From the IMG/VR virus record IMGVR_UViG_3300045988_175656: a stretch of DNA of 64,000 bases; one strand, given 5' to 3'. This document shows positions 5,198 through 46,442 of this stretch, one piece after another. How positions within the stretch are numbered: position 1 is the stretch's first letter; each line of letters opens with the position of its first letter. The notes beneath the pieces are model-generated. The model saw only the letters and a program-made list of their open reading frames with translations. It did no database searches and was not told the origin of the DNA. This DNA is from a virus. The position numbers and the translations under genes are program-made.

Positions 5198-5239
5198 TTG
5201 TTATTTTTTCATTTAGTTTACTAATAATTAGTAAACTAA
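5198..5239 (+). promoter_or_regulatory. MASTF leader element 1 (TTG-TATTTTTT box + 27-bp palindrome)
   Basis: TTGTTATTTTTT at 5198-5209; palindrome TTAGTTTACTAATAATTAGTAAACTAA at 5213-5239; ATG at 5247. Confidence 0.7.
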
Positions 5240-5246
5240 TGAGAAA

Positions 5247-6170
5247 ATGGCTAGTACATTTACAATTAAACAAGAAGGATATGATGACCCATACACATAT
5301 AGACTTGGTATGGTTGGTAATGGAGTAAGATTATGTATTGCTCCTAAAAAGGAAGGTGGAAGTCAATTATTCAGAAAAGAAGATGAAAATATATGGACTT
5401 CCATTTCATATGATAATAATGGAAAATATATTGCTTGTGGTAGAACACCAAGTGGTACAGGGTGTATAAGTATTTCATCTGATAAATGTGAAACGTGGTC
5501 AGAGACAAAAATTTTAGGTGATATATGGGCTGGAGTTGCATGTGGAAATGGTAAATATGTTGTTGTTGGCAGAAACGGATATGTTGGCATGTCAACAGAT
5601 GGTGAAAATTGGGACATATCTCAAATTGATAATGATTTAAGTTGTTCAAGTATTGCTTATGGTAATAATATGTTTATTATTGTTGGTAATACCATATCAA
5701 CTCCAACTGCTCCTAAATCTTATGTATTAAAAAATGGTAGTGATGAATGGGTTGAACTTAAATATAGTTCAACAAGTTTTACTATTGAATCAATTACTTA
5801 TAGTGATTATTCAAACAGATTTGTTAGTGTTGGAAGTAGTTTAGCACTATCAACAAGAGATGCTGATTATTGGGATATTGAAAGAGTTGCAGATGGTGCT
5901 GATTTATATGCAGTTGCATATGTAAATAGAGAAATTGCAGTAGGTAATCATGAAGAAATTTATTATAATGGTGCAAATGGATGGAAATTAGTTCCATATG
6001 ATTCACCTGGTAATATTATATGGCTAAGTGTTGCTTATATTCCTGGAATGAAAGCTCATATAGCTGTTGGTACTTCAGGGTATTCAGTTGCATTTACAGA
6101 TAGTAATAATAGAACTGCAAAAACAAGGTTTTGGACTAAAGATTTATTATGTGTTATTAATGTTGTTTAA
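5247..6170 (+). CDS. MASTF-family protein 1, Asp-box/BNR-like beta-propeller repeats
   Basis: Starts MASTFTIKQEG, 7 nt after the family palindrome. Repeats SSDKCETW, STDGENW and TRDADYW, each followed by a GN..Y/F..VG strand. Confidence 0.8.
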   Translation: MASTFTIKQEGYDDPYTYRLGMVGNGVRLCIAPKKEGGSQLFRKEDENIWTSISYDNNGKYIACGRTPSGTGCISISSDKCETWSETKILGDIWAGVACGNGKYVVVGRNGYVGMSTDGENWDISQIDNDLSCSSIAYGNNMFIIVGNTISTPTAPKSYVLKNGSDEWVELKYSSTSFTIESITYSDYSNRFVSVGSSLALSTRDADYWDIERVADGADLYAVAYVNREIAVGNHEEIYYNGANGWKLVPYDSPGNIIWLSVAYIPGMKAHIAVGTSGYSVAFTDSNNRTAKTRFWTKDLLCVINVV

Positions 6171-6175
6171 TTTAA

Positions 6176-6202
6176 AGCCCTATAATTATAGGGCTTTTTT
6201 TA
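6176..6202. terminator. intrinsic terminator between convergent genes
   Basis: AGCCCTATAATTATAGGGCT hairpin followed by a T7 run. Confidence 0.7.
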
Positions 6203-6661
6203 TTATCCTGATACATCATAAGTAAAACCATTATTTGAACTATCAATTATGACTTTAGTTTCATCATTCGATTTTAATTTAATTTCAAATACTTTTGCTG
6301 CTCCACTTGGTTTAGGGTCAATACATGAAATTACTCCATTTGGAAAATTTTCTGAACTACTATCATCCAAATAACAATATTCTGGGTTGTTGGTATTAGG
6401 ATTTATATATAACATATAAGAATCATCACCTGTGTTCTTATAATAATACTTTAATAAATTAAAATTATCCAATATTTCAATATCAACATATTGAAACCAG
6501 TTAAATGTAGGTGAATTACCACTATTTGTTTTTGCCTTTATTGGCAATTCATATATTCCACATTCCCACCATGAAGCATTTAGATATGATGATGATGAAT
6601 CAATATATGCAGTAACTAATTCTTCTTTTCCTTGTTGTATAATTGTAAAAGTGCTAGCCAT
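6203..6661 (-). CDS. MASTF-family protein 2
   Basis: Starts MASTFTIIQQG; palindrome at 6668-6694; ends ..GFTYDVSG. Confidence 0.8.
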   Translation of the reverse strand: MASTFTIIQQGKEELVTAYIDSSSSYLNASWWECGIYELPIKAKTNSGNSPTFNWFQYVDIEILDNFNLLKYYYKNTGDDSYMLYINPNTNNPEYCYLDDSSSENFPNGVISCIDPKPSGAAKVFEIKLKSNDETKVIIDSSNNGFTYDVSG

Positions 6662-6667
6662 GTTTTG

Positions 6668-6709
6668 TTAGTTTACTAATTATTAGTAAACTATTTAAAA
6701 AAATAACAA
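6668..6709 (-). promoter_or_regulatory. MASTF leader element 2
   Basis: The reverse complement reads TTGTTATTTTTTT-aa-ATAGTTTACTAATAATTAGTAAACTAA; ATG at 6661. Confidence 0.7.
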
Positions 6710-6749
6710 TTTTTAATATTTTTTATTCATACATTTCAATAAAAAGTTG

Positions 6750-6757
6750 TATATTTG
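6750..6757 (+). promoter_or_regulatory. Bacteroidota-type -7 box TATATTTG
   Basis: Exact TAnnTTTG 84 nt before ATG 6841; no clear -33. Confidence 0.4.
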
Positions 6758-6840
6758 CAGTGTAATCATAATTTTTGCATATAATCACATGTTATGATAA
6801 TATGCATTATATATGATTATTAATTGATAATTAATGACTT

Positions 6841-7458
6841 ATGACAAAAAAACAAGATACTGAATATAAATATTGGTGTAAATTCCAAGAAGAAAATTGT
6901 AACTACTGTTGGGGAAGTGTATTTAATTCTATTCCACAAGAGTTTAAAAACAAATACAATGCAGTATGTTATATTGAGGATATTGATAAAGCAGTTGGAG
7001 TTGGGGTATTTTTAAGAACTTTAGGTTATAAAATACAAAATATGCATCATCCTAGAATATTTTATGATGTGTGTTCTTTGAATCATACATTGTATGTTGA
7101 TGAATTTGGTATATCTTATAATGGGGCAGACAGAGAAAACCCATTAGAATTTATTACTAAATGGGTTTCTGATAGAAACAAAGAACGTGCTGAAGGAAAA
7201 GAATTTCATTATCAAAATGAATTTATTGATTGTGGTGATAATGTGGATTTGTTGAAAGTAGTGGCGAGTTTAACAGATACTAATGATTTAAATCAACCAT
7301 TCATTAGAACATTGCCAAATGGAGAAGAAGATTGGTATATAAACACACAATGGAAACATTTTGAAACTGACTGTAATGTTGAATGGGCAAAAAAAGCTTG
7401 TAGAAAAGCAACATTAGATGAAATAATAAATCATTTTAAAAATAATGGAAAATATTAA
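6841..7458 (+). CDS. hypothetical protein
   Basis: 205-aa ATG ORF downstream of a TATATTTG box at 6750-6757. Confidence 0.7.
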   Translation: MTKKQDTEYKYWCKFQEENCNYCWGSVFNSIPQEFKNKYNAVCYIEDIDKAVGVGVFLRTLGYKIQNMHHPRIFYDVCSLNHTLYVDEFGISYNGADRENPLEFITKWVSDRNKERAEGKEFHYQNEFIDCGDNVDLLKVVASLTDTNDLNQPFIRTLPNGEEDWYINTQWKHFETDCNVEWAKKACRKATLDEIINHFKNNGKY

Positions 7459-7720
7459 AATAGAGGATAGGGAAGTTTATTTGGTATTGAGACCAAATGA
7501 TTTGATAGAAAAATTATCTATCAACCAATGGAATGATTTTATTACAAGGTATGAAAATGATAAACTTTCATTAGTTACCCCATATGATGAAAAATATGAC
7601 GGATGGTTTTTTGTTACAACAACATTAAAAAACATAATTGAAAATCATTCATTATACGATTTAAGATTTCTTTATGAATATAGAACTGAACATCATTTAT
7701 CTTTTGAAGATAAAAAATAA
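7445..7720 (+). CDS. hypothetical protein
   Basis: 91-aa ATG ORF; 14-nt overlap with the upstream gene. Confidence 0.65.
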   Translation: MENIKIEDREVYLVLRPNDLIEKLSINQWNDFITRYENDKLSLVTPYDEKYDGWFFVTTTLKNIIENHSLYDLRFLYEYRTEHHLSFEDKK

Positions 7721-7731
7721 ATTAATATAAT

Positions 7732-9033
7732 ATGAAAGAATATACATTTGATGAAATAAGAAAAGAAGGGTTGTTAATATATGAATATATTCGTGGTTCT
7801 CATGCTTATGGTTTACAAAAACCTGATGGTACCAGTGATGTTGATACAGCAGGTGTTTATCTTGAACCAATTGAACAAGTTTTAGGGCTTGGATTGGATT
7901 TTCAAGAACAAATTGAAGATGAAAAACATGATAATGTTTGGTTTTCATTAAGAAAATTCATGGAAATGCTTCTTTCTTCAAATCCAACAGTACTCGAATC
8001 TTTATTCATTCCTGAAGATAAAATTTTGTACGAACACCCTATAATGACAGAAATTAAAAAATATAGAAACGCCTTTGTGACAAAGGCATGTTTTAAACCA
8101 TTTATGGGTTATGCTAAAACACAAATTATAAAAGCTCGTGGTCTCAATAAGAAAATAGTAAATCCAGTCAAAGAACGTTTAGAACCTCTTGATTTTGCTT
8201 ATACTTTTTACAATCAAGGAAGTACTAAGATTAAAAATTGGCTTGAATATAGGGGTTTAAAACAGCAATATTGTGGACTTGTACATATACCTAATATGCA
8301 TGATACATATGGTGTATATTATGATTGGGGTAATCATTTTAATGATAATGGTATAACTGTTGAACAATTATGGAATGACTATGTTAATATGGAGAAAGAT
8401 AATCAATTATCTCATATGTGTGAATGTATTGTTGAAACATACCATATAGTTGGTCATGCTGAACTTGAAAATTGGTTTGAAGAACAAAAGCCAATTGGTT
8501 ATAAAGGTATGGTTGGTGAAGATGGACTTTCAAATGAATTAAGATTATCTTCAGTTTCTAAGGGTGAAATGCCAATATGTCATTTGACTTATAACAAAGA
8601 TGGCTATACTAAACATTGTAAGGATTATAAAGCTTATAAGGATTGGGAGAAGAATAGAAATCCTGAAAGATATAAAGAAAACAAGGAAAAGGATTTTGAC
8701 AGAAAAAATATGTCACATAGTGTAAGATTAATGCATATGGGACTTGAAATAGCAAAAACTGGACAAGTTAATGTTGATAGAACAAATATTGACAGAGATT
8801 TCATTCTTGATATTCGTCTTGGCAATTCAACTTATGATGAATTGATTAATTATCTTGATTCAAAAAAGGAAGAAATGGAAAATGCGATGGCAAAATCTAC
8901 TCTACCAGAAAATATTGATGTTGAATTTGTAAATAATCTTTTATTGAAAGTTAGAAAAAAACAATATAAATATTTCATATGGAATAGATTAAAAGCTAAA
9001 TATTTCATATGGAATAGAACAAAAACTATATAA
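7732..9033 (+). CDS. RlaP-like (pol-beta superfamily) nucleotidyltransferase
   Basis: N-terminal RGSHAYGLQKPDGTSDVDTAGVY matches the GS-x(n)-DxD NTase motif typical of the RNA-repair-associated RlaP family. Confidence 0.7.
   Translation: MKEYTFDEIRKEGLLIYEYIRGSHAYGLQKPDGTSDVDTAGVYLEPIEQVLGLGLDFQEQIEDEKHDNVWFSLRKFMEMLLSSNPTVLESLFIPEDKILYEHPIMTEIKKYRNAFVTKACFKPFMGYAKTQIIKARGLNKKIVNPVKERLEPLDFAYTFYNQGSTKIKNWLEYRGLKQQYCGLVHIPNMHDTYGVYYDWGNHFNDNGITVEQLWNDYVNMEKDNQLSHMCECIVETYHIVGHAELENWFEEQKPIGYKGMVGEDGLSNELRLSSVSKGEMPICHLTYNKDGYTKHCKDYKAYKDWEKNRNPERYKENKEKDFDRKNMSHSVRLMHMGLEIAKTGQVNVDRTNIDRDFILDIRLGNSTYDELINYLDSKKEEMENAMAKSTLPENIDVEFVNNLLLKVRKKQYKYFIWNRLKAKYFIWNRTKTI
8968..9018 (+). repeat. 21-nt direct repeat x2 (30-nt period) at the 3' end of the NTase gene
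   Basis: AAATATTTCATATGGAATAGA at 8968-8988 and 8998-9018; encodes KYFIWNR twice. Confidence 0.85.
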
Positions 9034-9038
9034 ATAAA

Positions 9039-9066: not shown

Positions 9067-9081
9067 TCTTAATTTATTATT

Positions 9082-9534
9082 TTAAAGAATTGGATGTTCA
9101 ATTGTTAAACCAGCATTAACAGTTATTCCATCAACAATTATTGTAAATGTACAATAATCATCATAATTACCTTCTGCTTTATCTTTATCATATATACACT
9201 GTAAATCAGCAATTGCCATTTGATTATTATGAGTAGTCACACAGTTTTTCCAATAATTAAAATTAACATCAGTAGTAGATTGATATGGACTTAAATTAAC
9301 TTCTAAATGTCCATAATACGAACTACCACTCATATTAACAGCTAAATTAGTAGTTACTCTATCTCCTGCAATATCTGATATTGTAACATCAAGATAATCA
9401 CCATTCATATATTGTTCTGTATTTGATGGTGGTGTTCCCCCAGGTGTAAAAACCATACCATTTGCAGTTAATCTAATACTAAAAGTTATGGTTCTTAAAT
9501 TTCCATCTTGATTAATTCTAAAAGTACTCGCCAT
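9082..9534 (-). CDS. MASTF-family protein 3
   Basis: Starts MASTFRINQDG; palindrome at 9543-9569. Confidence 0.8.
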   Translation of the reverse strand: MASTFRINQDGNLRTITFSIRLTANGMVFTPGGTPPSNTEQYMNGDYLDVTISDIAGDRVTTNLAVNMSGSSYYGHLEVNLSPYQSTTDVNFNYWKNCVTTHNNQMAIADLQCIYDKDKAEGNYDDYCTFTIIVDGITVNAGLTIEHPIL

Positions 9535-9542
9535 TGTCTTGT

Positions 9543-9584
9543 TTAGTTTACTAATTATTAGTAAACTAAATGAAAAAATAACAA
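9543..9584 (-). promoter_or_regulatory. MASTF leader element 3
   Basis: The reverse complement reads TTGTTATTTTTT-cat-TTAGTTTACTAATAATTAGTAAACTAA; ATG at 9534. Confidence 0.7.
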
Positions 9585-9588: not shown

Positions 9589-9891
9589 TTAGTCAGGATA
9601 TTGATAAATTCCATCAGTTGTTGGAGTACAATGACACCACCAGTCTCCTGTTGTTCTAAATCCCCATATATTTGTCTGCCCTTTTTGTACAATTACTGTT
9701 TTAGAAATATGTCTTCCAGGGTTATCACAATCAATATACATTATTAATACACTTATGTCAACATTTGTTGGATGCTCAAATCTTAAATCATATTGATTAC
9801 AATTACTTCCTTCATCACCTTCTTTTTTTGGTAATATATTATTCATTGGTAATGATTTACCTACTTGGTTAATTATGAATGTGCTTGCCAT
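9589..9891 (-). CDS. MASTF-family protein 4
   Basis: Starts MASTFIINQVG; palindrome at 9899-9925; ends ..GIYQYPD. Confidence 0.8.
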   Translation of the reverse strand: MASTFIINQVGKSLPMNNILPKKEGDEGSNCNQYDLRFEHPTNVDISVLIMYIDCDNPGRHISKTVIVQKGQTNIWGFRTTGDWWCHCTPTTDGIYQYPD

Positions 9892-9898
9892 GTTTTGT

Positions 9899-9936
9899 TT
9901 AGTTTACTAATTATTAGTAAACTAAACAAAAAAATT
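9899..9936 (-). promoter_or_regulatory. MASTF leader element 4
   Basis: The reverse complement reads GAATTTTTTTG-TTTAGTTTACTAATAATTAGTAAACTAA; ATG at 9891. It lies in the divergent region shared with the tail-fibre operon. Confidence 0.65.
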
Positions 9937-10028
9937 CATCTCCTATTTGCTTAAAATGAAACAACTTACAAAGTAATTTTCATTAATAACAAATTATGAA
10001 CAAATATTTATAGTAAAATTATAAAGAG

Positions 10029-12434
10029 ATGACAGAATTTGATTTAAATAATCCTTTTAATGATGCTTCAAAGGATGGTATGTTACCTGATGGTTGTGGT
10101 ATTTTTGAAAGATATTATACAAGTGGACAAGAAGTAGATTTTTGTGGTCTTTCTCCAAATCCAGATGATTATGAAACACCACAAACATTATATGAAAAAA
10201 TATTGGAGTTAGTAAAAAGAATAATTGTAGCTGTTGATTTAAACACTAATGGAACATATAAACCATCTGATTTCGATATTTATCCATTAATTGCAAATGC
10301 AACATCAGTTAAAGATGCTGTTGAAAGATTGTCAAAATATATTGAAGATTTACAACAGAAAAAATTTGATAAACTTAATTTAAAATTAAAATATGAAAAT
10401 GGTAATGTTTCATTAGTTTTTAATGGTGAAGCTTATACTACTATTAATATACCTGAAGAACAATTTCTTGATAGTGAAGAAACTAAATTCATTTCGGCTG
10501 CTACTATTGATGATTATATGAATGACTCTTCTGTAATTGTTGGAAAACCTTATTTGAAACTAAGTTTCAAAACAATTGATGCAAGTGGTAAACCTTCTAT
10601 TACATATACATACATTCCAATGACTTATTTATTTAATGTTTATGGTGTGGAAGATACCAATTCAATTGATATGCATATGGTTGCTTCAGGAGATACAAAT
10701 GTATTTTCAGGTGATTTAAGAATAAATGATGTTAGTAGTAATGCGTTAAAAGTAGATGCTTTGGGAGCATATGTTGAAGATTTAAATCCTATTATTGAAG
10801 CTGAACAAATTCGTGCTGAAGCTGCTGAAAAAACATTGACAGATGATTTGGCTAAAGAAGTAACTCGTGCAACCAATATGGAATATAACATTATTAATAT
10901 GGTTAGTAATGAAACTGATAGAGCCATAGAAGCTGAAAAGAAACTACAAGACCAAATTACAACTGAAGTTAATCGTGCGTCAAATACTGAACAACAATTA
11001 TATGACAGAATACAAGCTGAACAAACTCGTGCTGTTAGAGTGGAAGGTGATTTACGTGATGATTTAAATTTTGAAATTCAACGTTCAACTAACAAAGATA
11101 TACAATTAGAAAATGCAATTAAGGCTGAACAAACTCGTGCTGAAGCTGCTGAAAAAACATTGACAGATGAAATTGTAGCGGAAACTAATAGAGCTAAAAA
11201 TGAAGAAACAAGAATTGAAAAAGACTTAAATGACAAAATCATAAATAATTCAGATGCTCTTGCTGCTGAAGTAACTCGTGCTAAAAGTGAAGAAACGAGA
11301 ATTGAAACCAAGTTTGATACTTTAGTTTCTGCTAATACCACAGCAATTGAAACTGAAGTAACTCGTGCAACTAATGCTGAAGCTGCACTGAATAAGAAAA
11401 TTGAGGACGAAACAACTCGTGCAAAAGCTGCCGAAAAAGTTAATGCTGATGCAATTGTAACAGAAACGACAAGAGCAACTAATAGAGAGAATGAATTAGA
11501 TGCTGATATTAAAAATAGAATAAAATCTATAACTGGAAGTAATGGTATTAATGCAACAACAGATATTAATAAAAATGTAACTCTTTCAGGAAAAGTTAAA
11601 TCAGGTGATAAAATATTATCAGTTGATAGTAATGGTTTTTCATCTACATTAGGAATGTCAATAAGTGGTAAAACCATTAGTTTGACAGGTATTGGCAATT
11701 CTGAAATATCTAAAATTACTGTTCCTGGTGATGATTTAACATTTGCTGGCAGTAATGGCATAACAGTTGTTAAAAGTGGTGATACAGTTACCTCAACTAT
11801 TATTGTAGACCCTAATTCGTCAAATCAATTAACAAAAAGTAGTACAGGATTGATGGTAAATCCTGAAAACATTACATTAGTTGATTCAACAGGTGGAACT
11901 AAAATATTAACCACAACAGCTAATTTAGTTATTGTTAATGTAACCTCACAATTAAACTATATTGGTATATCAAATAGTAAACAAGATAAAATAACATTTT
12001 TTAATAATAGTGCATTAGAAGTATTGTTTTCATTTAATAATTCTTCAGCAGGAACTAATAAATTTGTTAAAGATTATATAATAACTTCATTAGCTTTACC
12101 AAGTAAAGGCTCAATTGATTTTGTTAAAAGAAATGATGGATGGCACGTATCTTCATTATTTGGTTTATCTTACTTTCCAGATTTGAGTGATTCTTCACGT
12201 AGTGATGATTATGCATTAATTGTTAAAAAAGATGGAACTGCAACTATTGAAGAAATTGTTGATATGAAAGCTTGGGATGAATCTATATTGTCTGATTTAA
12301 GTGCTGTACAATTAGAAAATATGTTTCCTAATGCTCATGCAGGTTTTCAATTAGTATGTTATTCAAATAATTGTATATATGAAAAAGCTAACGAGTTAGG
12401 TGGATGGTTAAAAATAAATTGTGTAAAATTATAA
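10029..12434 (+). CDS. tail fibre protein with coiled-coil repeat shaft
   Basis: 801 aa. About 12 tandem ~18-aa repeats E-x-[TN]-R-A-x3-E-x2-L-x3-I (aa ~257-500), followed by a Ser/Thr/Gly-rich beta region and a C-terminal globular part. Confidence 0.75.
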   Translation: MTEFDLNNPFNDASKDGMLPDGCGIFERYYTSGQEVDFCGLSPNPDDYETPQTLYEKILELVKRIIVAVDLNTNGTYKPSDFDIYPLIANATSVKDAVERLSKYIEDLQQKKFDKLNLKLKYENGNVSLVFNGEAYTTINIPEEQFLDSEETKFISAATIDDYMNDSSVIVGKPYLKLSFKTIDASGKPSITYTYIPMTYLFNVYGVEDTNSIDMHMVASGDTNVFSGDLRINDVSSNALKVDALGAYVEDLNPIIEAEQIRAEAAEKTLTDDLAKEVTRATNMEYNIINMVSNETDRAIEAEKKLQDQITTEVNRASNTEQQLYDRIQAEQTRAVRVEGDLRDDLNFEIQRSTNKDIQLENAIKAEQTRAEAAEKTLTDEIVAETNRAKNEETRIEKDLNDKIINNSDALAAEVTRAKSEETRIETKFDTLVSANTTAIETEVTRATNAEAALNKKIEDETTRAKAAEKVNADAIVTETTRATNRENELDADIKNRIKSITGSNGINATTDINKNVTLSGKVKSGDKILSVDSNGFSSTLGMSISGKTISLTGIGNSEISKITVPGDDLTFAGSNGITVVKSGDTVTSTIIVDPNSSNQLTKSSTGLMVNPENITLVDSTGGTKILTTTANLVIVNVTSQLNYIGISNSKQDKITFFNNSALEVLFSFNNSSAGTNKFVKDYIITSLALPSKGSIDFVKRNDGWHVSSLFGLSYFPDLSDSSRSDDYALIVKKDGTATIEEIVDMKAWDESILSDLSAVQLENMFPNAHAGFQLVCYSNNCIYEKANELGGWLKINCVKL
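10800..10846 (+). repeat. 47-nt direct repeat, copy 1 (46/47 identical to 11124-11170)
   Basis: GCTGAACAAATTCGTGCTGAAGCTGCTGAAAAAACATTGACAGATGA. Confidence 0.85.
11124..11170 (+). repeat. 47-nt direct repeat, copy 2
   Basis: GCTGAACAAACTCGTGCTGAAGCTGCTGAAAAAACATTGACAGATGA. Confidence 0.85.
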
Positions 12435-12437
12435 CAA

Positions 12438-13817
12438 ATGGATAAATATGGAAACTATATAAAAAGAATTCCAAGCCCTGATGCAAATAGAACAACAATT
12501 TTTACAACATTTAATTATGCATTCCAAAATTATTATTCAAATGATTTCAATTATATTCCAAATCCAGTTATAAATTCAGATTATAATTGTTACATACGAT
12601 TTGATTCAGAAACGCCTGGTGAAGTAGTTGTTGATTGGGGGGATGGAAACATTGAAACATTCAAAATGAGAAAATATGGCACAAATGCATATATTGCTGC
12701 TTGGAGAACACTTAATGTTGATTATAGGAAAAACCCATCAGCAACAGGTGGTGGATGGAGCTTAGGTATTGACCAAGACACAGGAGAGTATATAAGACCC
12801 TATCCAAATCACCATTATGCTGATGATGATATAAATGGTGAAAGAGTTATTAGGATGACATTTACTTGTGATATTATAAGAGCATATTTTAACACAACTG
12901 TACATCATAATTTCCCAATATTAGAAATGACTAATCTAAAACAATTACTATTAACGGATAATAAATACATTAATGAAATACCATATAGTAGAATTACTAA
13001 GTTAAAAAACTTAACTTATCTTAATTTTAATAGATTAGGTGGTACATTACAATATATTCCTGATTCAATTTTTGATATGACAGGTTTAACATCATTGACA
13101 TTAGCTGGAGTTGTTAATCTCTCTAATTTAGATTCATCTAATATTAGAAAAATATCTAATTTAAAAAAATTAACAACATTAGATTTAAACACAACACAAA
13201 TACCACAATATATCAAAGAGTTTAACGATTTGCCAAACTTGGTATCTTTAAACATTGCGCCTAATGTTAATTCAGATACACAACCAAGATTTGATGAAGT
13301 TACTCAAATAAATCAAAAATTAACAAACCTTAATTATATGGGGTCTAATTGGATAGCAGGTAGAGTCAGAACTAATTGGGCTGATTGGATAAGCGGAAAA
13401 GGAATTGGGAATATACAAACACTTTATGCTGATTATGCTCCAAAATTGACTTGGAATTTGCCAGAATATATAAGAAACGAAATGCGTTCTTTATCTACAA
13501 TTAATCTAATTAATGATACACCAACACAAGATAGAGCAGATACTTTTGTTAATAATTTTTATAATTATGTTACAGGATGGACACAAATTACTATGTCATC
13601 AATAGCAAAAGATGGTAAAAGAAACCAATTATATGGATTATATGTTAATTTATATAGCGCATCTGAGCCACAAAACAATACAAGACCATCAGGTGTGGAA
13701 CAAGCCCCATCTGGTTTTGTAAAAGGCTCTAATAATGGCAACCCAACAACTCCAATGGAAAAAATATATGTGTTAAAAAATAACTATGCACAAGCATGGA
13801 ATGTTAAACCAGCATAA
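12438..13817 (+). CDS. PKD-like + leucine-rich-repeat protein (receptor-binding candidate), paralogue A
   Basis: Has VVDWGDGNIETF...NHHY (PKD-like), then LRRs (LKNLTYLNFN, LTSLTLAG, LKKLTTLDLN). Its C-terminus is shared with the next gene. Confidence 0.75.
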   Translation: MDKYGNYIKRIPSPDANRTTIFTTFNYAFQNYYSNDFNYIPNPVINSDYNCYIRFDSETPGEVVVDWGDGNIETFKMRKYGTNAYIAAWRTLNVDYRKNPSATGGGWSLGIDQDTGEYIRPYPNHHYADDDINGERVIRMTFTCDIIRAYFNTTVHHNFPILEMTNLKQLLLTDNKYINEIPYSRITKLKNLTYLNFNRLGGTLQYIPDSIFDMTGLTSLTLAGVVNLSNLDSSNIRKISNLKKLTTLDLNTTQIPQYIKEFNDLPNLVSLNIAPNVNSDTQPRFDEVTQINQKLTNLNYMGSNWIAGRVRTNWADWISGKGIGNIQTLYADYAPKLTWNLPEYIRNEMRSLSTINLINDTPTQDRADTFVNNFYNYVTGWTQITMSSIAKDGKRNQLYGLYVNLYSASEPQNNTRPSGVEQAPSGFVKGSNNGNPTTPMEKIYVLKNNYAQAWNVKPA

Positions 13818-13819
13818 AA

Positions 13820-15190
13820 ATGTTAACTAGAACTTACAAAATTGATAATACAAATAGAGTAGTACTTTATATGCAAGGAGAATATGCATTTAAAAGTTTA
13901 TATTTCTCTAATCCACAACAAACACCTACACCGACAACAGGTTCAGACCATAATTCAACAATTAGGTTTCAATCTTCAAGTCCAGGTAGTGTAACTGTTG
14001 ATTGGGATGATGGAAATGTTGAAACATTTCAAATGCAAAATAACGGTTCATCTTATATAATTGGATGGCGTTGTTTGGATGTTGATTATTATAAAAATCC
14101 ATCATCAACAGGTGGTGGGTGGGGATGGGGTATTGACCAAAGCACTGGTCAATACATAAAACCATTACCAAATCATCATTACACAGATGGAGAAACAAGA
14201 GAAAGGCATATTATCATAACATTTACTTGTGAAGATGTATATTATTTCAATAGTGAAACTGTTACCATGTGGAGTTTTCCTATTTTGGAATTACCTGCTT
14301 TACAGACATTAGGAATTTCATATACTAGCTATATAAACGAAATACCTTTTGTGAGAATATCTAAAGTCAAAAATTTAACAACTTTAAATTTTACATCATT
14401 AGGTAGCAAATTGCAATTTATTCCTGATTCGCTATTTGAGATGACAGGCTTAACATCATTAGCAATATCAGGTGTATTTAATTTAAGTGACCCAGATGCA
14501 TCTAATTTTAGAAATATTAAAAAACTTAAAAATTTAAAATCATTAACAGCAACAGTTTGTAATATAACAACTTATATAAAAGAATTTAATGATTTACCAA
14601 AGTTAGAAAATTTAAATATTAGTAATGCAAACTTAGCTTATTATGGTGCTGATGGAGTACCAACTTTCAACGAAATATCAACTATTAACCCATCAATTAA
14701 AATAATGAATGTTCTTGGAGCAGGTTATAGTGGTAGTGGTATTAGAACTTCGTGGATGGAGAATGTATTTGCTGGAAAAGGATTAGAAAATTTAACTCAA
14801 TTATTAATCGAATATCAAAATAATCTTACTTTAATATTGCCTGAATATTTGAAAGAAATGAATAGTTTAAATTATATTTATGGGTTAAATTCTTTTAAAA
14901 GTCAAAGTAGAGCCGATACATGGGTAAATAATTTATATAGTTACATGACTAATTGGGAACAAGTAACTATGACAAATAAACTTAAAAATGGTAAACGTAA
15001 TCAGTTTTATGGTTTAAGTGTAAGTATGTGGTCAAGTAGTTATCCTTATGATTATAGACCATCAGGAACATATCAAGCCCCATCTGGTTTTGTAAAGGGT
15101 GTTAGTAATGGTAATCCAACAACACCAATGGAAAAAATATATGTAATGCAAAACAACTATGCTCATAGTTGGAATATAAGACCAGCATAA
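13820..15190 (+). CDS. PKD-like + leucine-rich-repeat protein, paralogue B
   Basis: Collinear paralogue of 12438-13817. Shared blocks include VDWDDGNVETF, NHHY, IPDS[IL]F[DE]MTGLTSL and APSGFVKG..NGNPTTPMEKIYV. Confidence 0.75.
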   Translation: MLTRTYKIDNTNRVVLYMQGEYAFKSLYFSNPQQTPTPTTGSDHNSTIRFQSSSPGSVTVDWDDGNVETFQMQNNGSSYIIGWRCLDVDYYKNPSSTGGGWGWGIDQSTGQYIKPLPNHHYTDGETRERHIIITFTCEDVYYFNSETVTMWSFPILELPALQTLGISYTSYINEIPFVRISKVKNLTTLNFTSLGSKLQFIPDSLFEMTGLTSLAISGVFNLSDPDASNFRNIKKLKNLKSLTATVCNITTYIKEFNDLPKLENLNISNANLAYYGADGVPTFNEISTINPSIKIMNVLGAGYSGSGIRTSWMENVFAGKGLENLTQLLIEYQNNLTLILPEYLKEMNSLNYIYGLNSFKSQSRADTWVNNLYSYMTNWEQVTMTNKLKNGKRNQFYGLSVSMWSSSYPYDYRPSGTYQAPSGFVKGVSNGNPTTPMEKIYVMQNNYAHSWNIRPA

Positions 15191-15226: not shown

Positions 15227-16603
15227 TTAATAGTTAATATTATTAATATGTTTAAAGCATTCTTCTTTAGTGATAAGTGGGTTATTTAGCCATAATTTAG
15301 TTAAATAATCTAAATATAATTTAACTTTTGGACCAGGCTCTATATTCTTATATGATATAATATCTTCACCATTAACAGGAAGTTTTAGTTTAAAAGCATC
15401 TAATCCTTGTTCAACTAATTTATCACTTCTTTCTTTGATTAATCTTACCTGATTTGGCATACAATGGTCAGATTTATGTGCTCTATTATCTGCATCAATC
15501 AAATCCATTGTAAGTTCAAATGTGTCACCAAGAGCTAATTGTAATTTACGAACACTTTTATCTTTTAATTTTGCACAATCATCACCAAACGATTTAGTTC
15601 TCATATGAGCATTTACAGCCTTTCTAACACGTTTAATTATATCATTCGGGTATTTCATTGTTCTCATTCTAACCTCACTTAAAAAGGCTGAAACGTTCTC
15701 ATGATTGTAAAAATGAATTTTTCCATTTTCATCAACTGTTTTAGTTTTTATTTTACCTAAATCATGAAACAATGCAGCAACTCTATTTTCAAGAATTGGT
15801 TTTGTATTATCAACAACCATTAGTGTATGTTCCCATGCAGTTCCAAAATGATATTCATTCTGTTCAAGATTCACCATTTCAACAAAATCAGGAAGGACGT
15901 ACTGAAGTAAACCTGTTTTTTCTAACATTCTTAAACCAACACTCGGTTTTTTTGTTAAAAGAATTTTATTTATTTCATCAGTAACCCTTTCTTGTGTGAT
16001 AATTTGAATTCTTTCAACATTATCAATAATTCCTTGCATTGTTTTTTCTTCTATTTCCCATCCATAACGAGATGCAAATCTTATACAACGAAGCATACGG
16101 AGAGCATCTTGGTTAAATATAATATTTGGGTTAGAAGTAGAACGAATAATTTTACTATTTAAATCGTTTAGACCTTTTCCAGAAAAATCGTATAATTCAT
16201 CAGTTGATATATTAATAAACATTGAATTAATCGTAAAATCTCTTCTCAAACATTCTTCTTCAATTGTACAACTTTCCACTATTGGATTTCTTGAATCATC
16301 TTTATATTTTTCACTTCTTGGTGCAACACATTCGATTTTTTCTCCCATAAAATTGAACATAGCAGTTCCATAAAGTCCATAACAAAGAGGTGGATGTAAC
16401 TTCATCTTATCACAAAACCAAATTGCGAAATCTATACCTGCATTAATATCACCATCAATCAATAAATCAATATCATTTGACTGATTACCCATAATCAAAT
16501 CTCTCACATAACCACCAACTACCATAACTCTATTCTCATATTCAGTATTTTTGATAGTGTCTTTAATTGAAAGTAATATTTTATTTTCTATTTTAATATT
16601 CAT
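15227..16603 (-). CDS. cca: tRNA nucleotidyltransferase (CCA-adding enzyme / poly(A) polymerase family) with HD domain
   Basis: GGYVRD...NDIDL head motif, RRDFTINSM, and WEHT...FHDLGK (HD). Confidence 0.85.
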   Translation of the reverse strand: MNIKIENKILLSIKDTIKNTEYENRVMVVGGYVRDLIMGNQSNDIDLLIDGDINAGIDFAIWFCDKMKLHPPLCYGLYGTAMFNFMGEKIECVAPRSEKYKDDSRNPIVESCTIEEECLRRDFTINSMFINISTDELYDFSGKGLNDLNSKIIRSTSNPNIIFNQDALRMLRCIRFASRYGWEIEEKTMQGIIDNVERIQIITQERVTDEINKILLTKKPSVGLRMLEKTGLLQYVLPDFVEMVNLEQNEYHFGTAWEHTLMVVDNTKPILENRVAALFHDLGKIKTKTVDENGKIHFYNHENVSAFLSEVRMRTMKYPNDIIKRVRKAVNAHMRTKSFGDDCAKLKDKSVRKLQLALGDTFELTMDLIDADNRAHKSDHCMPNQVRLIKERSDKLVEQGLDAFKLKLPVNGEDIISYKNIEPGPKVKLYLDYLTKLWLNNPLITKEECFKHINNINY

Positions 16604-16959: not shown

Positions 16960-17002
16960 TTGTTATTTTTTTAATTTAGTTTACTAATAATTAGTAAACT
17001 AA
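16960..17002 (+). promoter_or_regulatory. MASTF leader element 5
   Basis: TTGTTATTTTTTT then a perfect palindrome at 16976-17002; ATG at 17009. Confidence 0.7.
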
Positions 17003-17008
17003 CAAAAC

Positions 17009-17338
17009 ATGGCGAGCACATTTAAAATTATACAAGCAGCACATATAATAAAAAATGATTGTACAATTAGAATCAGTAGAGTAGGTGGTTCATGTGTAGA
17101 TATTAGAGCATCTATACCAACAACATCAAAAGTAAATGTATTCTTAAATATAACATATTCAGATGGTATGGGCAATCAAGAGGACATATGGTTAATTACA
17201 ATCCCAAAGGGAACAGAATCATCTTATAGAACTTGTTATGGAATGGGTGGAGATGAAATAGAAATAATGTCAGCTTCTCTTAACGATTTTTCGCCATCAC
17301 AAGACGATACAACAATTTATGATGTCATAGTATCTTAA
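17009..17338 (+). CDS. MASTF-family protein 5
   Basis: Starts MASTFKIIQAA; palindrome at 16976-17002; ends ..TIYDVIVS. Confidence 0.8.
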   Translation: MASTFKIIQAAHIIKNDCTIRISRVGGSCVDIRASIPTTSKVNVFLNITYSDGMGNQEDIWLITIPKGTESSYRTCYGMGGDEIEIMSASLNDFSPSQDDTTIYDVIVS

Positions 17339-17347
17339 AAAATTAAG

Positions 17348-17385
17348 TATTTTTCGATTTAGTTTACTAATAATTAGTAAACTAA
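17348..17385 (+). promoter_or_regulatory. MASTF leader element 6
   Basis: TATTTTTC box at 17348-17355; perfect palindrome at 17359-17385; ATG at 17394. Confidence 0.7.
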
Positions 17386-17393
17386 ACAAAATA

Positions 17394-17789
17394 ATGGCAA
17401 GCACTTTTAAAATTATGCAGCAAGGATATACACCATTAGTAAAAACATTATACATAAATGTTAGTGGAACTTCTGATTTAATCACAATAAACATTGTTGG
17501 TGATGATGGTAACTTTCATTATCCAACTTCAGTTTTATATTTTGCTCTTGAATTTAATTCAGGCGGTAATAGTTGTGTTGGAACTACAATAGATATTGAA
17601 TATAGTAATTTAGAAAATTCACCTATGTATATGAATGTAACAGGCGATTTTGGTAGTAGAACTATTAATAGAAATTCAATATCAATTACTGATTTAGGTT
17701 GTGATGGCAACTATGAAATACCAATTTATATATACTATGGTGGTAATCAATCAGATGATACCTATGATTATGTTGTAAGAGTTGTGTAA
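17394..17789 (+). CDS. MASTF-family protein 6
   Basis: Starts MASTFKIMQQG; palindrome at 17359-17385; ends ..TYDYVVRVV. Confidence 0.8.
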   Translation: MASTFKIMQQGYTPLVKTLYINVSGTSDLITINIVGDDGNFHYPTSVLYFALEFNSGGNSCVGTTIDIEYSNLENSPMYMNVTGDFGSRTINRNSISITDLGCDGNYEIPIYIYYGGNQSDDTYDYVVRVV

Positions 17790-17809
17790 ATTTTTCTCCT
17801 TTAGTACAG

Positions 17810-17847
17810 CATTTTTGCATTTAGTTTGATAATAATTATCAAACTAA
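17810..17847 (+). promoter_or_regulatory. MASTF leader element 7 (covarying variant)
   Basis: CATTTTTG box; palindrome TTAGTTTGATAATAATTATCAAACTAA. AC/GT is changed to GA/TC in both arms, so pairing is kept. Confidence 0.7.
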
Positions 17848-17853
17848 ACAAAC

Positions 17854-24700: not shown

Positions 24701-24740
24701 TTATATAATATTTTACTTATAAATATCCCAAACACATTCT

Positions 24741-24778
24741 TACTTTTTTAATTGCTTTACTAATTATTGATAAACTAA
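24741..24778 (+). promoter_or_regulatory. MASTF leader element 8 (degenerate)
   Basis: TACTTTTT box; TTGCTTTACTAATTATTGATAAACTAA with arms only partly complementary; ATG at 24785. Confidence 0.5.
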
Positions 24779-24784
24779 ATAAAT

Positions 24785-25860: not shown

Positions 25861-25902
25861 TTGTTATTTTTTATGATAGTTTACTAATAATTAGTAAACT
25901 AA
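25861..25902 (+). promoter_or_regulatory. MASTF leader element 9
   Basis: TTGTTATTTTTT; palindrome ATAGTTTACTAATAATTAGTAAACTAA at 25876-25902; ATG at 25918 (15-nt spacer, the longest). Confidence 0.7.
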
Positions 25903-25917
25903 ATAAATACAAACAAC

Positions 25918-26866: not shown

Positions 26867-26886
26867 ATGTACTCAATTGAGTACAT
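26867..26886. repeat. GTACTCAATTGAGTAC palindrome, copy A1
   Basis: Perfect 20-bp palindrome ATGTACTCAATTGAGTACAT, 1 nt after the stop of 25918-26865. Confidence 0.8.
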
Positions 26887-26895
26887 ATAGGTATT

Positions 26896-27354: not shown

Positions 27355-27530
27355 AATTTATAGGTTTTACCTATAAATATATCTCACGTTTTTAATTTAT
27401 ATTGACAATAATTCGTTTAAAATTCATTAACACAAATTAGATTTAATTATATAATTACCTATGAAGTATAAAAGTGGTACGAAATTAGTAAATTAATCTC
27501 ATACCACCAAATTTTTATTGTTAAATTTTG

Positions 27531-30861: not shown

Positions 30862-30906
30862 CGAATTAATTATGAACAAAGAAAAAATATTTTAATAAAA
30901 TATGTG

Positions 30907-30944
30907 AATTTTTGCGATTAGTTTAATAATAATTATTAAACTAA
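30907..30944 (+). promoter_or_regulatory. MASTF-type leader element 12, orphan (covarying variant)
   Basis: AATTTTTG box; palindrome TTAGTTTAATAATAATTATTAAACTAA (C/G changed to A/T in both arms). Only a 4-codon ORF (30960-30974) follows, then terminator 31001-31028. Confidence 0.55.
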
Positions 30945-31000
30945 TTAACAACACAGAAAAATGTCATCTCTGTAACCATATATGGCGTTATATGGGAAAG

Positions 31001-31028
31001 TCCCTCAAAATTTTTTGAGGGATTTTTT
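31001..31028 (+). terminator. intrinsic terminator after the orphan MASTF-type leader
   Basis: CCCTCAAA-attt-TTTGAGGG followed by GATTTTTT. Confidence 0.6.
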
Positions 31029-31037
31029 GTTATATAA

Positions 31038-31078
31038 TGTTATTTTTTTAAGTAGTTTACTAATAATTAGTAAACTAA
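31038..31078 (+). promoter_or_regulatory. MASTF leader element 10
   Basis: TGTTATTTTTTT; palindrome GTAGTTTACTAATAATTAGTAAACTAA at 31052-31078; ATG at 31086. Confidence 0.7.
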
Positions 31079-31085
31079 CAAAACA

Positions 31086-31451: not shown

Positions 31452-31457
31452 TCTTAT

Positions 31458-31475
31458 TGTACTCAATTGAGTACA
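31458..31475. repeat. GTACTCAATTGAGTAC palindrome, copy A2
   Basis: TGTACTCAATTGAGTACA, 6 nt after the stop of 31086-31451. Confidence 0.8.
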
Positions 31476-31496
31476 TTTAACTTGCTATATAAAAAT

Positions 31497-42639: not shown

Positions 42640-42640
42640 A

Positions 42641-42958: not shown

Positions 42959-42985
42959 ATTATTTCTTCTTTTATTTGTTCAGTA

Positions 42986-43662: not shown

Positions 43663-43670
43663 TATTTAAC

Positions 43671-43931
43671 TTATTTTGATTCAATTAATTTCATTAATTC
43701 AGCTTTTTTAATCTCGCCTTCAAAAGCATTCATCACTTTTTTAATGGCATAATCAGATAAATCATACATATCTTTTAAATGTTTTTTAAACCATTTAGTA
43801 AATGTTATTCTATTATTCACATTTTTTTGATAATCAATAAATTCATATTTTAAAGAAACCCAATTCCAACCACCATTAATAACAATTGAAGTGATAAAAT
43901 CATTTACATTTGTATATTCTTTTTTTCTCAT
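43671..43931 (-). CDS. hypothetical protein
   Basis: 86-aa ATG ORF. Confidence 0.6.
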   Translation of the reverse strand: MRKKEYTNVNDFITSIVINGGWNWVSLKYEFIDYQKNVNNRITFTKWFKKHLKDMYDLSDYAIKKVMNAFEGEIKKAELMKLIESK

Positions 43932-43932
43932 A

Positions 43933-44790: not shown

Positions 44791-44791
44791 A

Positions 44792-45265
44792 TTAATTTAA
44801 TTTTTCTTTATATTCTTTAATAAATTCTTTAAAAATCAATTCAGCTTTATATTTTGCTCTGTTGGCAAATTCAAAATTCAAATCACTAAACATCATAGGA
44901 TGATAATGTTTTGTTTTAACTTTCTTTTCAGTAAAAGATAATAAAATATGTTTAATAACAAACTTTGCTTTTTTAGATAAATCTTTAGCATCTTCATTAT
45001 TTTTAGCAATAAGAGAGTATGAACCATCTTCGTTTTTAGTCAAAATAAAATATTCATATAACTTATTTTTAATACGACTAATAATCCGATTAAGTAGTTC
45101 ATTTTCATAATCTTTTTCTGTTTGAAATTCAATTTTTTCACCACAGATAGGGCAAAAATCAAAATGACTTCGTATTACATATTCGTTACAATAAGGACAC
45201 ATATAAAAATCATCGTATATTTCATTAGTAATATAACTACTATGGTATTTAATTATTCTCTTCAT
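44792..45265 (-). CDS. zinc-ribbon protein
   Basis: CPYCNE...CPICGE near the N-terminus; 157 aa. Confidence 0.6.
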   Translation of the reverse strand: MKRIIKYHSSYITNEIYDDFYMCPYCNEYVIRSHFDFCPICGEKIEFQTEKDYENELLNRIISRIKNKLYEYFILTKNEDGSYSLIAKNNEDAKDLSKKAKFVIKHILLSFTEKKVKTKHYHPMMFSDLNFEFANRAKYKAELIFKEFIKEYKEKLN

Positions 45266-45295
45266 GTTTACACCTCTTTTACTATTTTAGTAATA

Positions 45296-45340
45296 CAAAA
45301 ATACAACAAAAAAACGAAACGGTCAAACAATTTGTGTTAA
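45296..45340 (-). promoter_or_regulatory. early-type promoter cassette (TTTG-N20-TATTTTTG)
   Basis: caaaaata at 45296-45303; caaa at 45324-45327; tgtgttaa contains the stop of 45337-45978. Confidence 0.6.
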
Positions 45341-45978
45341 AAAATGTTATCTTCAATAGATACTCTCACATTAGCACTTTCAAAATATACTCCATACGGA
45401 TGAACATAGGTCACAGGTATATTATGTTCTTTCAAAAATGACATTGTTTTTGTTTGCAATTCTGAATAGTTTTGATTCTTAAAAAATTCAATGGTAAAAG
45501 CGTGTGAACGGGTAGTTAAGTTAATATCTTTACATTCAATTTCCACATATTCATTAGTTGGAATATGAACAATTTTAAGTAAATAGTTGTTTAATTTTTG
45601 TTCAAATTCATCTAAATATTCATCCCATTTATAAGAAAGAATAGTCCAATAGTCATGCCCTTTTTTAGTTGAATTAAAAGGAAAAATCTCCATTAGATTA
45701 TAAATGCTTGATGAAAGTTCTAATAGAACCTTTTTAACATTTTCAACATCATCAGCATTCAAGTTAGAATGTAATCCTATGTTAAATTCTTTAACATATT
45801 CAGAATAGACTCTTTTGGATTTAAGCCATTTAACAAATTCAGCTACAATCATTTGATTATAAGTAAGCCCCTTTTTAGGAATGATATTATAATCAATTAA
45901 CTTTTTTTCAAGTTCTGTAAGAGTAATATTATCAAAATATGAATCAACATTTTCTTTAATTTCTTTTGTAAGTTTCAT
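45337..45978 (-). CDS. hypothetical protein
   Basis: 213-aa ATG ORF; follows cassette 46007-46051. Confidence 0.65.
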   Translation of the reverse strand: MKLTKEIKENVDSYFDNITLTELEKKLIDYNIIPKKGLTYNQMIVAEFVKWLKSKRVYSEYVKEFNIGLHSNLNADDVENVKKVLLELSSSIYNLMEIFPFNSTKKGHDYWTILSYKWDEYLDEFEQKLNNYLLKIVHIPTNEYVEIECKDINLTTRSHAFTIEFFKNQNYSELQTKTMSFLKEHNIPVTYVHPYGVYFESANVRVSIEDNIF

Positions 45979-46006
45979 TTTTATTTATCGTTTAATTATT
46001 ATAATG

Positions 46007-46051
46007 CAAATATAAGAAAAATAACTGAATTAACAAAATATTTTGTGTTAA
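46007..46051 (-). promoter_or_regulatory. early-type promoter cassette (TTTG-N19-TATATTTG)
   Basis: caaatata at 46007-46014; caaa at 46034-46037; tgtgttaa ending at 46051. Back-to-back with MASTF leader 11. Confidence 0.6.
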
Positions 46052-46058
46052 AAAATAA

Positions 46059-46097
46059 TAACTTTTTCATTTAGTTTACTAATAATTAGTAAACTAA
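46059..46097 (+). promoter_or_regulatory. MASTF leader element 11
   Basis: TAACTTTT box; perfect palindrome at 46071-46097; ATG at 46104. Confidence 0.7.
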
Positions 46098-46103
46098 ACA
46101 AAC

Positions 46104-46442
46104 ATGGCAAGCACTTTTAAAATTTATCAACAAGGAAAACAAGTTGAAGAAATCACTATTACTGTTATGGCTTATCAATATTGTCAATTAACAGTAGAAA
46201 TGTCAGAAGATGGCAATACAACATTTAAACAAAATATGTCACAAGGAAGTCAAGAAAGATATATGGTAGCCAAAGATTCTGTTATAAATTATAAAACATT
46301 CCCAATAAATTGTAGTGAAGATGTTATAAGTAATTTCTATGATGATAATGGAAATTTAATTAATTCTTGTTCAATGGGGGTAACATTATATAATATAACA
46401 AAAGGTGTTGATAAATTTATGACTATTGAAATAGGAAGATAA
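46104..46442 (+). CDS. MASTF-family protein 11
   Basis: Starts MASTFKIYQQG; palindrome at 46071-46097. It is the only rightward gene inside the 31.5-64 kb leftward block. Confidence 0.8.
   Translation: MASTFKIYQQGKQVEEITITVMAYQYCQLTVEMSEDGNTTFKQNMSQGSQERYMVAKDSVINYKTFPINCSEDVISNFYDDNGNLINSCSMGVTLYNITKGVDKFMTIEIGR

Follow-up and report, generated by a model that had tools for sequence, protein, structure and literature searches.

A set of eleven genes that share a short N-terminal peptide is spread over a 64,000-nt stretch of viral DNA (IMG/VR record IMGVR_UViG_3300045988_175656), which we refer to as the window. A six-frame search of the window retrieves exactly eleven open reading frames (ORFs) starting with MAS.F, each encoding 100–342 amino acids, at the same coordinates at which the original prediction, made from the letters alone, had placed eleven ORFs starting M-A-S-[T/Y/E]-F-x-[I/V]-x-Q-x-[G/A]. 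The relaxed pattern M...h.h.Q.[GA] retrieves no twelfth tagged ORF, either from the window itself or from 10 kb of DNA located upstream. We refer to the shared peptide as the tag, to the remainder of each protein as its body, and to each member by its lower window coordinate. Ten of the eleven members are acidic, with isoelectric points (pI) of 4.1–5.4, and none carries a hydrophobic signal sequence at its N-terminus (MASTF...).

Among the window copies, M1, A2, S3, F5 and Q9 are invariant, and I7 and G11 are conserved to at least 90%. The codons behind these residues differ synonymously from copy to copy, as had been stated before: A2 is encoded by GCA, GCG or GCT, S3 by AGC or AGT, T4 by ACT or ACA, F5 by TTT or TTC, Q9 by CAA or CAG and G11 by GGA, GGT or GGG. 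Averaged over the seven conserved residues, the column entropy amounts to 0.78 bit at codon position 3, compared to 0.19 at position 1 and 0.16 at position 2. Third positions vary and first and second positions do not, which supports the earlier proposal that the tag is selected at the level of the peptide itself. Ser3 is exclusively encoded by AGY codons, which fits common descent of the copies, and codon 6 is A-N-A in every window copy.

Upstream of all eleven members lies a near-identical 5′ element of ~50 nt that the original prediction had overlooked and that we refer to as the cassette. It consists of (i) a T-rich tract with the consensus ..TTGTTATTTTTT.., (ii) a 25-nt palindrome, TAGTTTACTAAT-A-ATTAGTAAACTA, which in the window is degenerate only at 24785, and (iii) an A-rich leader of 8–17 nt that lacks a Shine-Dalgarno sequence and runs directly into the ATG. 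Allowing three mismatches, the palindrome occurs ten times in the window against an expectation of zero, and a looser pattern adds two further variants. The window and related contigs together contain six sequence variants of the palindrome, each of them perfectly self-complementary. In a small alignment of nine sequences, double-sided changes are observed in 5 of the 12 stem pairs and one-sided changes in none, 100% of the cells are paired, and the covariation score is reached by 0 of 500 shuffles. This pattern of substitutions argues for a palindrome under selection for base pairing, as an RNA or a DNA hairpin, rather than for a sequence read by a protein. The palindrome folds as predicted when treated as RNA; since G-U pairs are absent from the stem, a hairpin at the DNA level is possible as well.

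Two candidate roles of the palindrome were considered and discarded. An intrinsic terminator is ruled out by the A/T-rich stem and by the lack of a T-run downstream in either orientation, and an operator for a sequence-specific dimer is unlikely, given that symmetric double changes without single changes favour pairing over base-specific contacts. The palindrome may instead act as a stabilising or regulatory hairpin in the 5′ untranslated region (5′-UTR) or as a DNA hairpin promoter of the kind found in phage N4. The promoters of the N4 virion RNA polymerase are inverted repeats whose stem bases can be changed if pairing is kept; a GC-rich heptamer lies between the repeats, and the hairpin that they make has a loop of 3 nt (PMC4496689). 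The palindrome described here resembles them in its position upstream of genes and in stem changes that preserve pairing. It differs in its A+T-rich stem of 11–12 bp and its loop of 1–3 nt, and it could equally be a 5′-UTR RNA hairpin. A scan of the window for sigma-70 promoters was uninformative (109 sites versus 110.8 expected), and Shine-Dalgarno-like motifs precede only 6 of the 63 window genes.

Within the window and related contigs, the tag is always accompanied by the cassette, the exceptions being three copies in which the palindrome is degenerate. In two contigs the 17394 gene is absent, and the junction falls within the shared ATTTAGTTT of the palindrome arm. The cassettes behave as units. 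As the tag never occurs apart from the hairpin and leader, the unity of the family lies in part in common control of expression and in recombination at the level of the cassette. Terminator-like hairpins are present 3′ of 5247 and 6203, which have one in common, and 3′ of 9082, 24785 and 46104; no such hairpin lies between the genes inside the tandem sets 9589–9082 and 17009–17394–17854. A second repeated element, the hairpin TGTACTCAATTGAGTACA, is found at the 3′ end of two cassettes, following 25918 at 26867–26890 (+) and 31086 at 31453–31478 (+).

A twelfth, orphan cassette has no tagged ORF. Its palindrome carries a compensatory change from C/G to A/T and is followed by ~60 nt in which the only ORF comprises four codons (M-S-S-L-stop) and then by the strong terminator CCCTCAAAATTTTTTGAGGG. 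The unit has a folding energy of −39 kcal/mol (z = −7.2) and is also present in two related contigs (L003 and L004). It may be a remnant of a family member that has decayed, or else a candidate small RNA belonging to this regulon.

We performed scans of viral and metagenomic sequences and obtained 95 unique full-length members with 17 body clusters, 10 of which are represented in the window. M1, S3, F5 and Q9 are present in 95 of the 95, A2 and G11 in 93, T4 in 85 and K12 in 60, and residue 7 is Ile in 90 and Val in 5. The N-terminus is thus kept in homologues from related phages and across all 17 body types, and the family is real and lineage-wide. A search by hidden Markov model had been proposed with the original prediction; we carried it out with a profile built from residues 1–30, which was compared with 1.84 billion representative proteins. 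It returned 30 significant matches, nearly all from one lineage, in a search in which matches resting on the 11 tag residues alone would fall below the significance threshold. Of these, 28 begin at residue 1 and correspond to the family or its fragments, whereas P0024 and P0038 match only in part, at internal positions outside the tag. Residue 1 is hence the starting point of every match that covers the tag. When a 44-residue N-terminal profile was used in a word-indexed search, it produced only 28 candidates, all of them fragments of these same proteins. An unrelated protein of 114–123 amino acids starting MASTFQIEQSG is encoded on six GC-rich metagenome contigs (L036, L040, L051, L062, L069 and L090). 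These proteins lack the cassette, and we rejected them as family members and treat the resemblance as chance or as unrelated, a coincidence to be expected from a database of this size, although it is seen on six contigs.

Cassette and tag are found together on IMG/VR contigs of 215–380 kb, the related gut contigs carrying the family extend over 215–398 kb, and proteins identical to those of the window are encoded on human-gut contigs of 389–398 kb. The 25918 protein is deposited in UniProt under ‘Myoviridae sp. ctNQV2’ with an automatic name only, and a megablast search with 6 kb of the window against the INPHARED phages gave no match. Jug phages have genomes of 360–402 kb, inhabit the human or animal gut and have Bacteroides and Phocaeicola as predicted hosts; they are reported to contribute ~1% of human gut metagenome reads, and for the larger part of their genes a function has yet to be assigned (PMC12880540). 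The rarity of Shine-Dalgarno motifs in the window and the Bacteroides proteins that are the nearest cellular relatives of one of the bodies, the propeller described below, both fit a Bacteroidota host. The window likely derives from this lineage of jumbo gut phages of Bacteroides/Phocaeicola, an assignment that is based on size, habitat and host signals. The report on the Jug phages makes no mention of an N-terminal tag, a palindrome or promoters (PMC12880540). PHROGs, NCBIfam and Pfam gave no match for the tag or for the small bodies, in agreement with the earlier remark that the signature was not recognised as a described family; Pfam searches with the 24-residue N-termini, which are too short as queries, gave no match at E-values up to 10. 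Nor was the family found described in the literature searched. Comparing strains, the identity of 9082 is 72–73% and that of 17394 is 34–69%, and several members are somewhat, not strikingly, more divergent across strains than many of their neighbours.

We compared the bodies of members from the window and from related DNA after masking residues 1–12. They fall into 15 BLAST clusters, and all-versus-all hhalign comparisons give probabilities of at most 16%. The earlier description of the bodies as otherwise unrelated consequently stands at the sequence level, save for 24785 and 25918, which are homologous to each other and form one BLAST cluster. Each of these two contains two stretches matching the BACON domain (PF13004), with 34.9 bits for 24785 and 29.3 bits for 25918 against the Pfam cut-off of 25, so that the BACON-like modules recognised previously score above the gathering threshold. 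Their fold matches are immunoglobulin (Ig)-like arrays and phage BACON proteins. Pfam detects no BACON domain in the other nine members; these have no hit of any kind in Pfam, PHROGs or NCBIfam, and a PDB sequence search with two small members returned spurious matches only. A natural deletion variant (P0021, 119 amino acids) joins the first 33 residues of 24785 to the last 86 of 25918; all four BACON domains are removed, and the product resembles a small member.

The propeller repeats proposed for 5247 agree with its AlphaFold2 (AF2) model, a confident β-propeller (predicted local distance difference test score, pLDDT, 88.6; predicted template modelling score 0.88) with 6–7 blades, and with its cellular homologues, which carry PF13088 and PF25852. 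The body matches proteins of Bacteroides and of gut metagenomes with E ~1e-19, a minority of the matches being assigned to a named organism. Judged from their sequences, these homologues are predicted Bacteroides lipoproteins: they have no tag and start instead with a signal peptide, which is followed by a lipobox Cys and a linker rich in Pro and Glu. Searches of Pfam, PHROGs and NCBIfam detected no domains of tailspikes or depolymerases among the bodies, and AF2 predicts Ig-like arrays and the propeller. A related last strand had also been proposed for six members: on inspection by eye, ~9 of the 15 body types show a C-terminal strand of the form [DN]..Y.Y.h, and this likeness lacks statistical support, the C-terminal hhalign matches having probabilities below 7%.

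The tag has the features of a β-strand. F5, I7 and Q9 are conserved at alternate positions, as on one face of a strand, and the register of the tag, h-x-h-x-Q-[AEDQ]-[GA], is that of the last strand of the BACON domains in 24785 and 25918. Across all window ORFs this pattern occurs 17 times, in the 11 tags, at 3 BACON ends and at 3 other sites. A variant of 25918 with 515 or 529 amino acids contains two additional BACON-like domains inserted between tag and body, and the last strand of the second inserted domain (..ITISLTQEGK) aligns collinearly with the tag of 25918 (..TFKITQEGK); the two have a run of 15 bases in common (ACA CAA GAA GGT AAA). In structure as well as in history, the tag is therefore best regarded as a terminal strand of BACON type that has become detached. 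In the searches made, an isolated BACON-like terminal strand did not turn up elsewhere as the N-terminus of a whole family. In the AF2 model of 25918, residues 1–10 have a pLDDT of 44 as opposed to 80–94 in the best-modelled domains; in that of 5247, they have a pLDDT of 46, and coil extends up to about residue 16. Both models are complete, closed folds with no missing last strand, and nothing in them shows the tag placed inside the fold of the body.

We tentatively favour, at a level short of even confidence, the reading that the tag is a docking strand by which co-regulated display modules are attached to one site on the virion. The eleven genes would be self-contained, co-regulated expression cassettes of a lineage-specific family, each composed of a promoter-like T-rich tract, a hairpin-capable palindrome, a leader and 11–12 codons for M-A-S-T-F-x-I-x-Q-x-G-(K), which have become joined to at least 17 unrelated, presumably β-rich bodies. 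At least two body types, the BACON arrays and the β-propeller, are of a kind known from Bacteroidales proteins. The tag would form a free N-terminal β-strand that mimics the last strand of a BACON or Ig-like domain and, by β-strand addition, would plug each member into one common acceptor on the virion, such that modules for adhesion or glycan binding could be exchanged on the surface of the phage. Through the cassette that they share, the members would have a common timing and level of expression; it would also serve recombination, as the source of the homology for loss or gain of cassettes. One conserved strand on many bodies implies one partner, and since bodies of extracellular type are made without a signal peptide, their only route out of the cell would be lysis, on virions or together with them. 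The likeness of the tag to a BACON strand sharpens the idea of a docking strand and supplies an evolutionary origin for it. The original prediction had likewise interpreted the tag as a common tag or docking strand, which is supported in part: the tag is selected as a peptide, conserved and unplaced in the two AF2 models, as that interpretation would have it, and the account was incomplete in missing the shared DNA cassette and the BACON-strand register.

Several observations weigh against the docking strand. The cassette was found solely upstream of family genes and in the orphan unit, so that the adjacent tail-like genes are without it, and the neighbourhood consists mainly of RNA-repair genes and small genes with no assigned role and contains no morphogenesis module. 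A truncated BACON-like socket, that is, a domain ending after the penultimate strand, was not found in the window or in loci L001–L034, DNA that covers ~1/6 of the genome and in which the search retrieved nothing but intact BACON domains belonging to family members. Neither a fold nor a homologue can be recognised for nine of the eleven bodies; the term display module is therefore extrapolated from two body types. Low AF2 confidence at an N-terminus is by itself weak evidence. Docking, association with virions, incorporation into them and cleavage are all inferences. Among the large neighbours examined, Pfam and PHROGs gave no hit to a T4gp10-like branching domain.

Placing a short N-terminal peptide on polymorphic phage proteins for targeting or docking is a type of solution that is already known. 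Docking peptides with a length of 7 or 11 residues have been reported for the receptor-binding proteins of K1E, K1-5 and SP6 and proposed for KP32-type phages (PMC6872550); they plug several virion proteins into one adapter or branching domain, as reported for K1-5/SP6 and proposed for the KP32/KP34 phages of Klebsiella (PMC6872550, PMC13352976). The family shares with these systems a conserved extreme N-terminus of 7–11 residues on several different proteins, with a virion location that here would have to be assumed. In K1-5/SP6/KP32-type phages the bodies are large depolymerase tailspikes, 2–11 per phage, encoded in the structural module, whereas the bodies of the family mostly comprise 100–150 amino acids, plus the BACON and propeller types, and the genes are scattered among non-structural genes. 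The BACON protein of crAssphage, with tandem PF13004 repeats, is matched by the true BACON domains of 24785 and 25918 and by the terminal-strand register of the tag; unlike in gut-phage BACON proteins, nine of the eleven members have no BACON domain. The form of the family is new in three respects: the tag resembles a BACON strand, the hairpin cassette is obligatory, and the bodies, of which there are at least 17, include some that are similar to predicted Bacteroides lipoproteins.

One peptide and one hairpin define a regulon of ~12 genes per genome with at least 17 interchangeable bodies. A docking strand, if true, would explain how a giant phage decorates itself with changing glycan- or surface-binding modules, would bear on host range and adherence to mucus, and would provide a natural 11-residue tag for cargo display. 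Were the tag a leader for capsid targeting, by contrast, the members would make up a collection of effectors that are injected to counter the defences of Bacteroides. In both cases the family, at present without a role, would gain a first candidate for one.

Such a leader is the main rival and a live one, although we regard it as unlikely. It would act as in phage T4, sending polymorphic proteins into the prohead core, and a prohead protease might cleave the tag after Q9 or near G11. Injection together with the DNA would then deliver the bodies to the host cell as effectors of takeover or anti-defence. The capsid-targeting sequence (CTS) of T4 reads MKTYQEFIAE, and T4 prohead cleavage follows the motif (L/I)-x-E, which the I-x-Q of the tag loosely recalls. 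The majority of the members are small (100–152 amino acids), lineage-restricted and without homologues, and they vary between strains more than many neighbours, which is in line with such cargo. The architecture is also that of the T4 internal proteins IPI, IPII and IPIII, in which a conserved N-terminal CTS precedes otherwise diverse bodies (PMC3012670), and a prohead protease is encoded by Jug phages (PMC12880540). As with the T4 CTS, a shared leader of ~10 residues is combined with bodies that differ between related phages. Unlike the T4 CTS, the tag is patterned as a β-strand and has no sequence similarity to that leader beyond the initial Met, at least two of the bodies are of extracellular type, and a hairpin cassette lies upstream of every copy. 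BACON domains and a lipoprotein-type propeller would be odd cargo for injection, and the acidic character of the members is a further point against it. Compared with a docking strand, a capsid-targeting leader is the better match for the small orphan bodies and the poorer one for the bodies with BACON domains or a propeller.

Rather unlikely is that the tag serves expression only, in which case the first 11 codons would belong to the mobile 5′ cassette and would be kept for translation initiation, N-terminal processing or stability, and the members would have no common partner. MAS is a classic well-expressed start, as in the leader of T7 gene 10. The association of tag and cassette, not found apart save for the three copies with a degenerate palindrome, would follow from such a role; the start region may matter more where Shine-Dalgarno motifs are rare, and the invariable A-N-A at codon 6 hints at a constraint at the nucleotide level. 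F5, I7, Q9 and G11 are, however, fixed while third positions are free, translation signals do not explain the pattern of alternate residues, and the other window genes, presumably expressed, do without the tag.

We consider it comparably doubtful that the tag, as a detached last strand of a BACON or Ig-like domain, acts by strand complementation in trans, completing either a strand-less socket on a capsid or tail protein or the members of a mixed fibre, with the hairpin regulon ensuring that the members are expressed together. This would amount to a phage version of donor-strand exchange that mounts swappable modules, including parts resembling predicted host lipoproteins. In chaperone-usher pilins, a short N-terminal strand with alternating hydrophobic residues is shared by Ig-like subunits and completes the fold in trans. 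The N-terminal strand of the family resembles it in its alternating hydrophobic residues; unlike the pilins, the family has no signal peptides, chaperone or usher, and the modelled members are complete folds. Exchange among the members themselves, in which the N-terminal strand of one would fill a groove beside the C-terminal strand of another to give a mixed fibre, is very unlikely. The alternating hydrophobics with Gly, the equivalence of the tag to the last (G) strand of an Ig-like domain, the similar strand [DN]..Y.Y.h ending ~9 of the 15 body types and the pilin-like size of the small members would be accommodated; both modelled members, 25918 and 5247, are complete, closed folds, and the C-terminal similarity is not significant. 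That the members are diverged copies of one small β domain whose first strand is most conserved is highly improbable: a second strand-like stretch follows the tag in many members and the 119-residue deletion variant resembles a small member, but there is no profile-profile signal among the bodies, which include a 6–7-bladed propeller and Ig-like arrays, and the cellular homologues of the propeller are without the tag.

Table 1 Coordinates of the tagged genes and their 5′ cassettes in the window
Feature	Coordinates	Strand	Details
5′ cassette of 5247	5198..5246	+	T-rich tract, palindrome 5214-5238, leader
Member, 307 aa	5247..6170	+	tag and β-propeller body homologous to predicted Bacteroides lipoproteins
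Member, 152 aa	6203..6661	-	small body, no fold recognised
5′ cassette of 6203-6661	6662..6709	-	palindrome 6669-6693
Member, 150 aa	9082..9534	-	
5′ cassette of 9082-9534	9535..9584	-	palindrome 9544-9568
Member, 100 aa	9589..9891	-	
5′ cassette of 9589-9891	9892..9940	-	palindrome 9900-9924
5′ cassette of 17009	16961..17008	+	palindrome 16977-17001
Member, 109 aa	17009..17338	+	
5′ cassette of 17394	17344..17393	+	palindrome 17360-17384
Member, 131 aa	17394..17789	+	entire cassette absent from some strains
5′ cassette of 17854	17806..17853	+	palindrome 17822-17846, compensatory AC/GT to GA/TC change
Member, 116 aa	17854..18204	+	
5′ cassette of 24785	24737..24784	+	degenerate palindrome ~24753-24777
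Member, 342 aa	24785..25813	+	tag, two BACON domains, C-terminal domain
5′ cassette of 25918	25861..25917	+	palindrome 25877-25901, 17-nt leader
Member, 315 aa	25918..26865	+	tag, two BACON domains, C-terminal β domain
Orphan twelfth cassette	30903..31030	+	palindrome 30919-30943, terminator hairpin 31004-31028
5′ cassette of 31086	31037..31085	+	palindrome 31053-31077
Member, 121 aa	31086..31451	+	lone + gene amid - strand genes
5′ cassette of 46104	46056..46103	+	palindrome 46072-46096
Member, 112 aa	46104..46442	+	lone + gene amid - strand genes

The members (Table 1) had been described as mostly interleaved with genes for tail fibres and adhesins. This applies to a group of large putative host-recognition neighbours, namely an 801-residue protein, two leucine-rich repeat (LRR) proteins and a 1001-residue PKD/BspA-LRR protein, for which tblastn finds matches in regions that carry the annotation of phage tail proteins. 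It leaves out the RNA-repair genes that are also located there. The latter encode RlaP, two RNA ligases, an RNA 2′-phosphotransferase and an HD-domain tRNA nucleotidyltransferase of the CCA-adding or poly(A) polymerase type, and lie at 7732–9033, 15227–16603 and 27531–28256 of the window and at 2077–2751 and 6975–7502 of the related locus L035. Their presence suggests a counter-measure against cleavage of tRNA or RNA by the host.

The window as a whole has a G+C content of 26.8% and contains no tRNA, and a search of its full length against Rfam at the gathering threshold returned no family. A motif resembling TATTTATA(A/G)GTAAAA is found at 24711–24725 (−), at 27365–27379 (−) and upstream of 10029, in each case 10–12 nt upstream of a start codon, those of the 1001-residue, the 136-residue and, as a variant, the 801-residue protein. 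Counted over the whole window, this motif shows no enrichment (6 occurrences versus 6.1 expected), and it may represent chance or a different class of promoter. The motif TATTTATARGTAAAA, which precedes two neighbouring genes, is likewise no more frequent than expected (6 versus 6.1).

The gene of the 801-residue protein and the two LRR genes (459 and 456 amino acids) occupy 10029–15190 (+). In one 396-kb strain (L033, 3450–7331), they are replaced by the gene of a single 1293-residue protein with phage fibre repeats, an exchange that looks like an allelic swap of a host-recognition module. The gene of the 1001-residue protein (21695–24700, −) is split in a human-gut contig (L030, 13842–16847) into ORFs of 511 and 446 amino acids lying ~130 nt apart, which could be a disruption or an intervening element; genes of Jug phages are reported to be often interrupted by introns and inteins.

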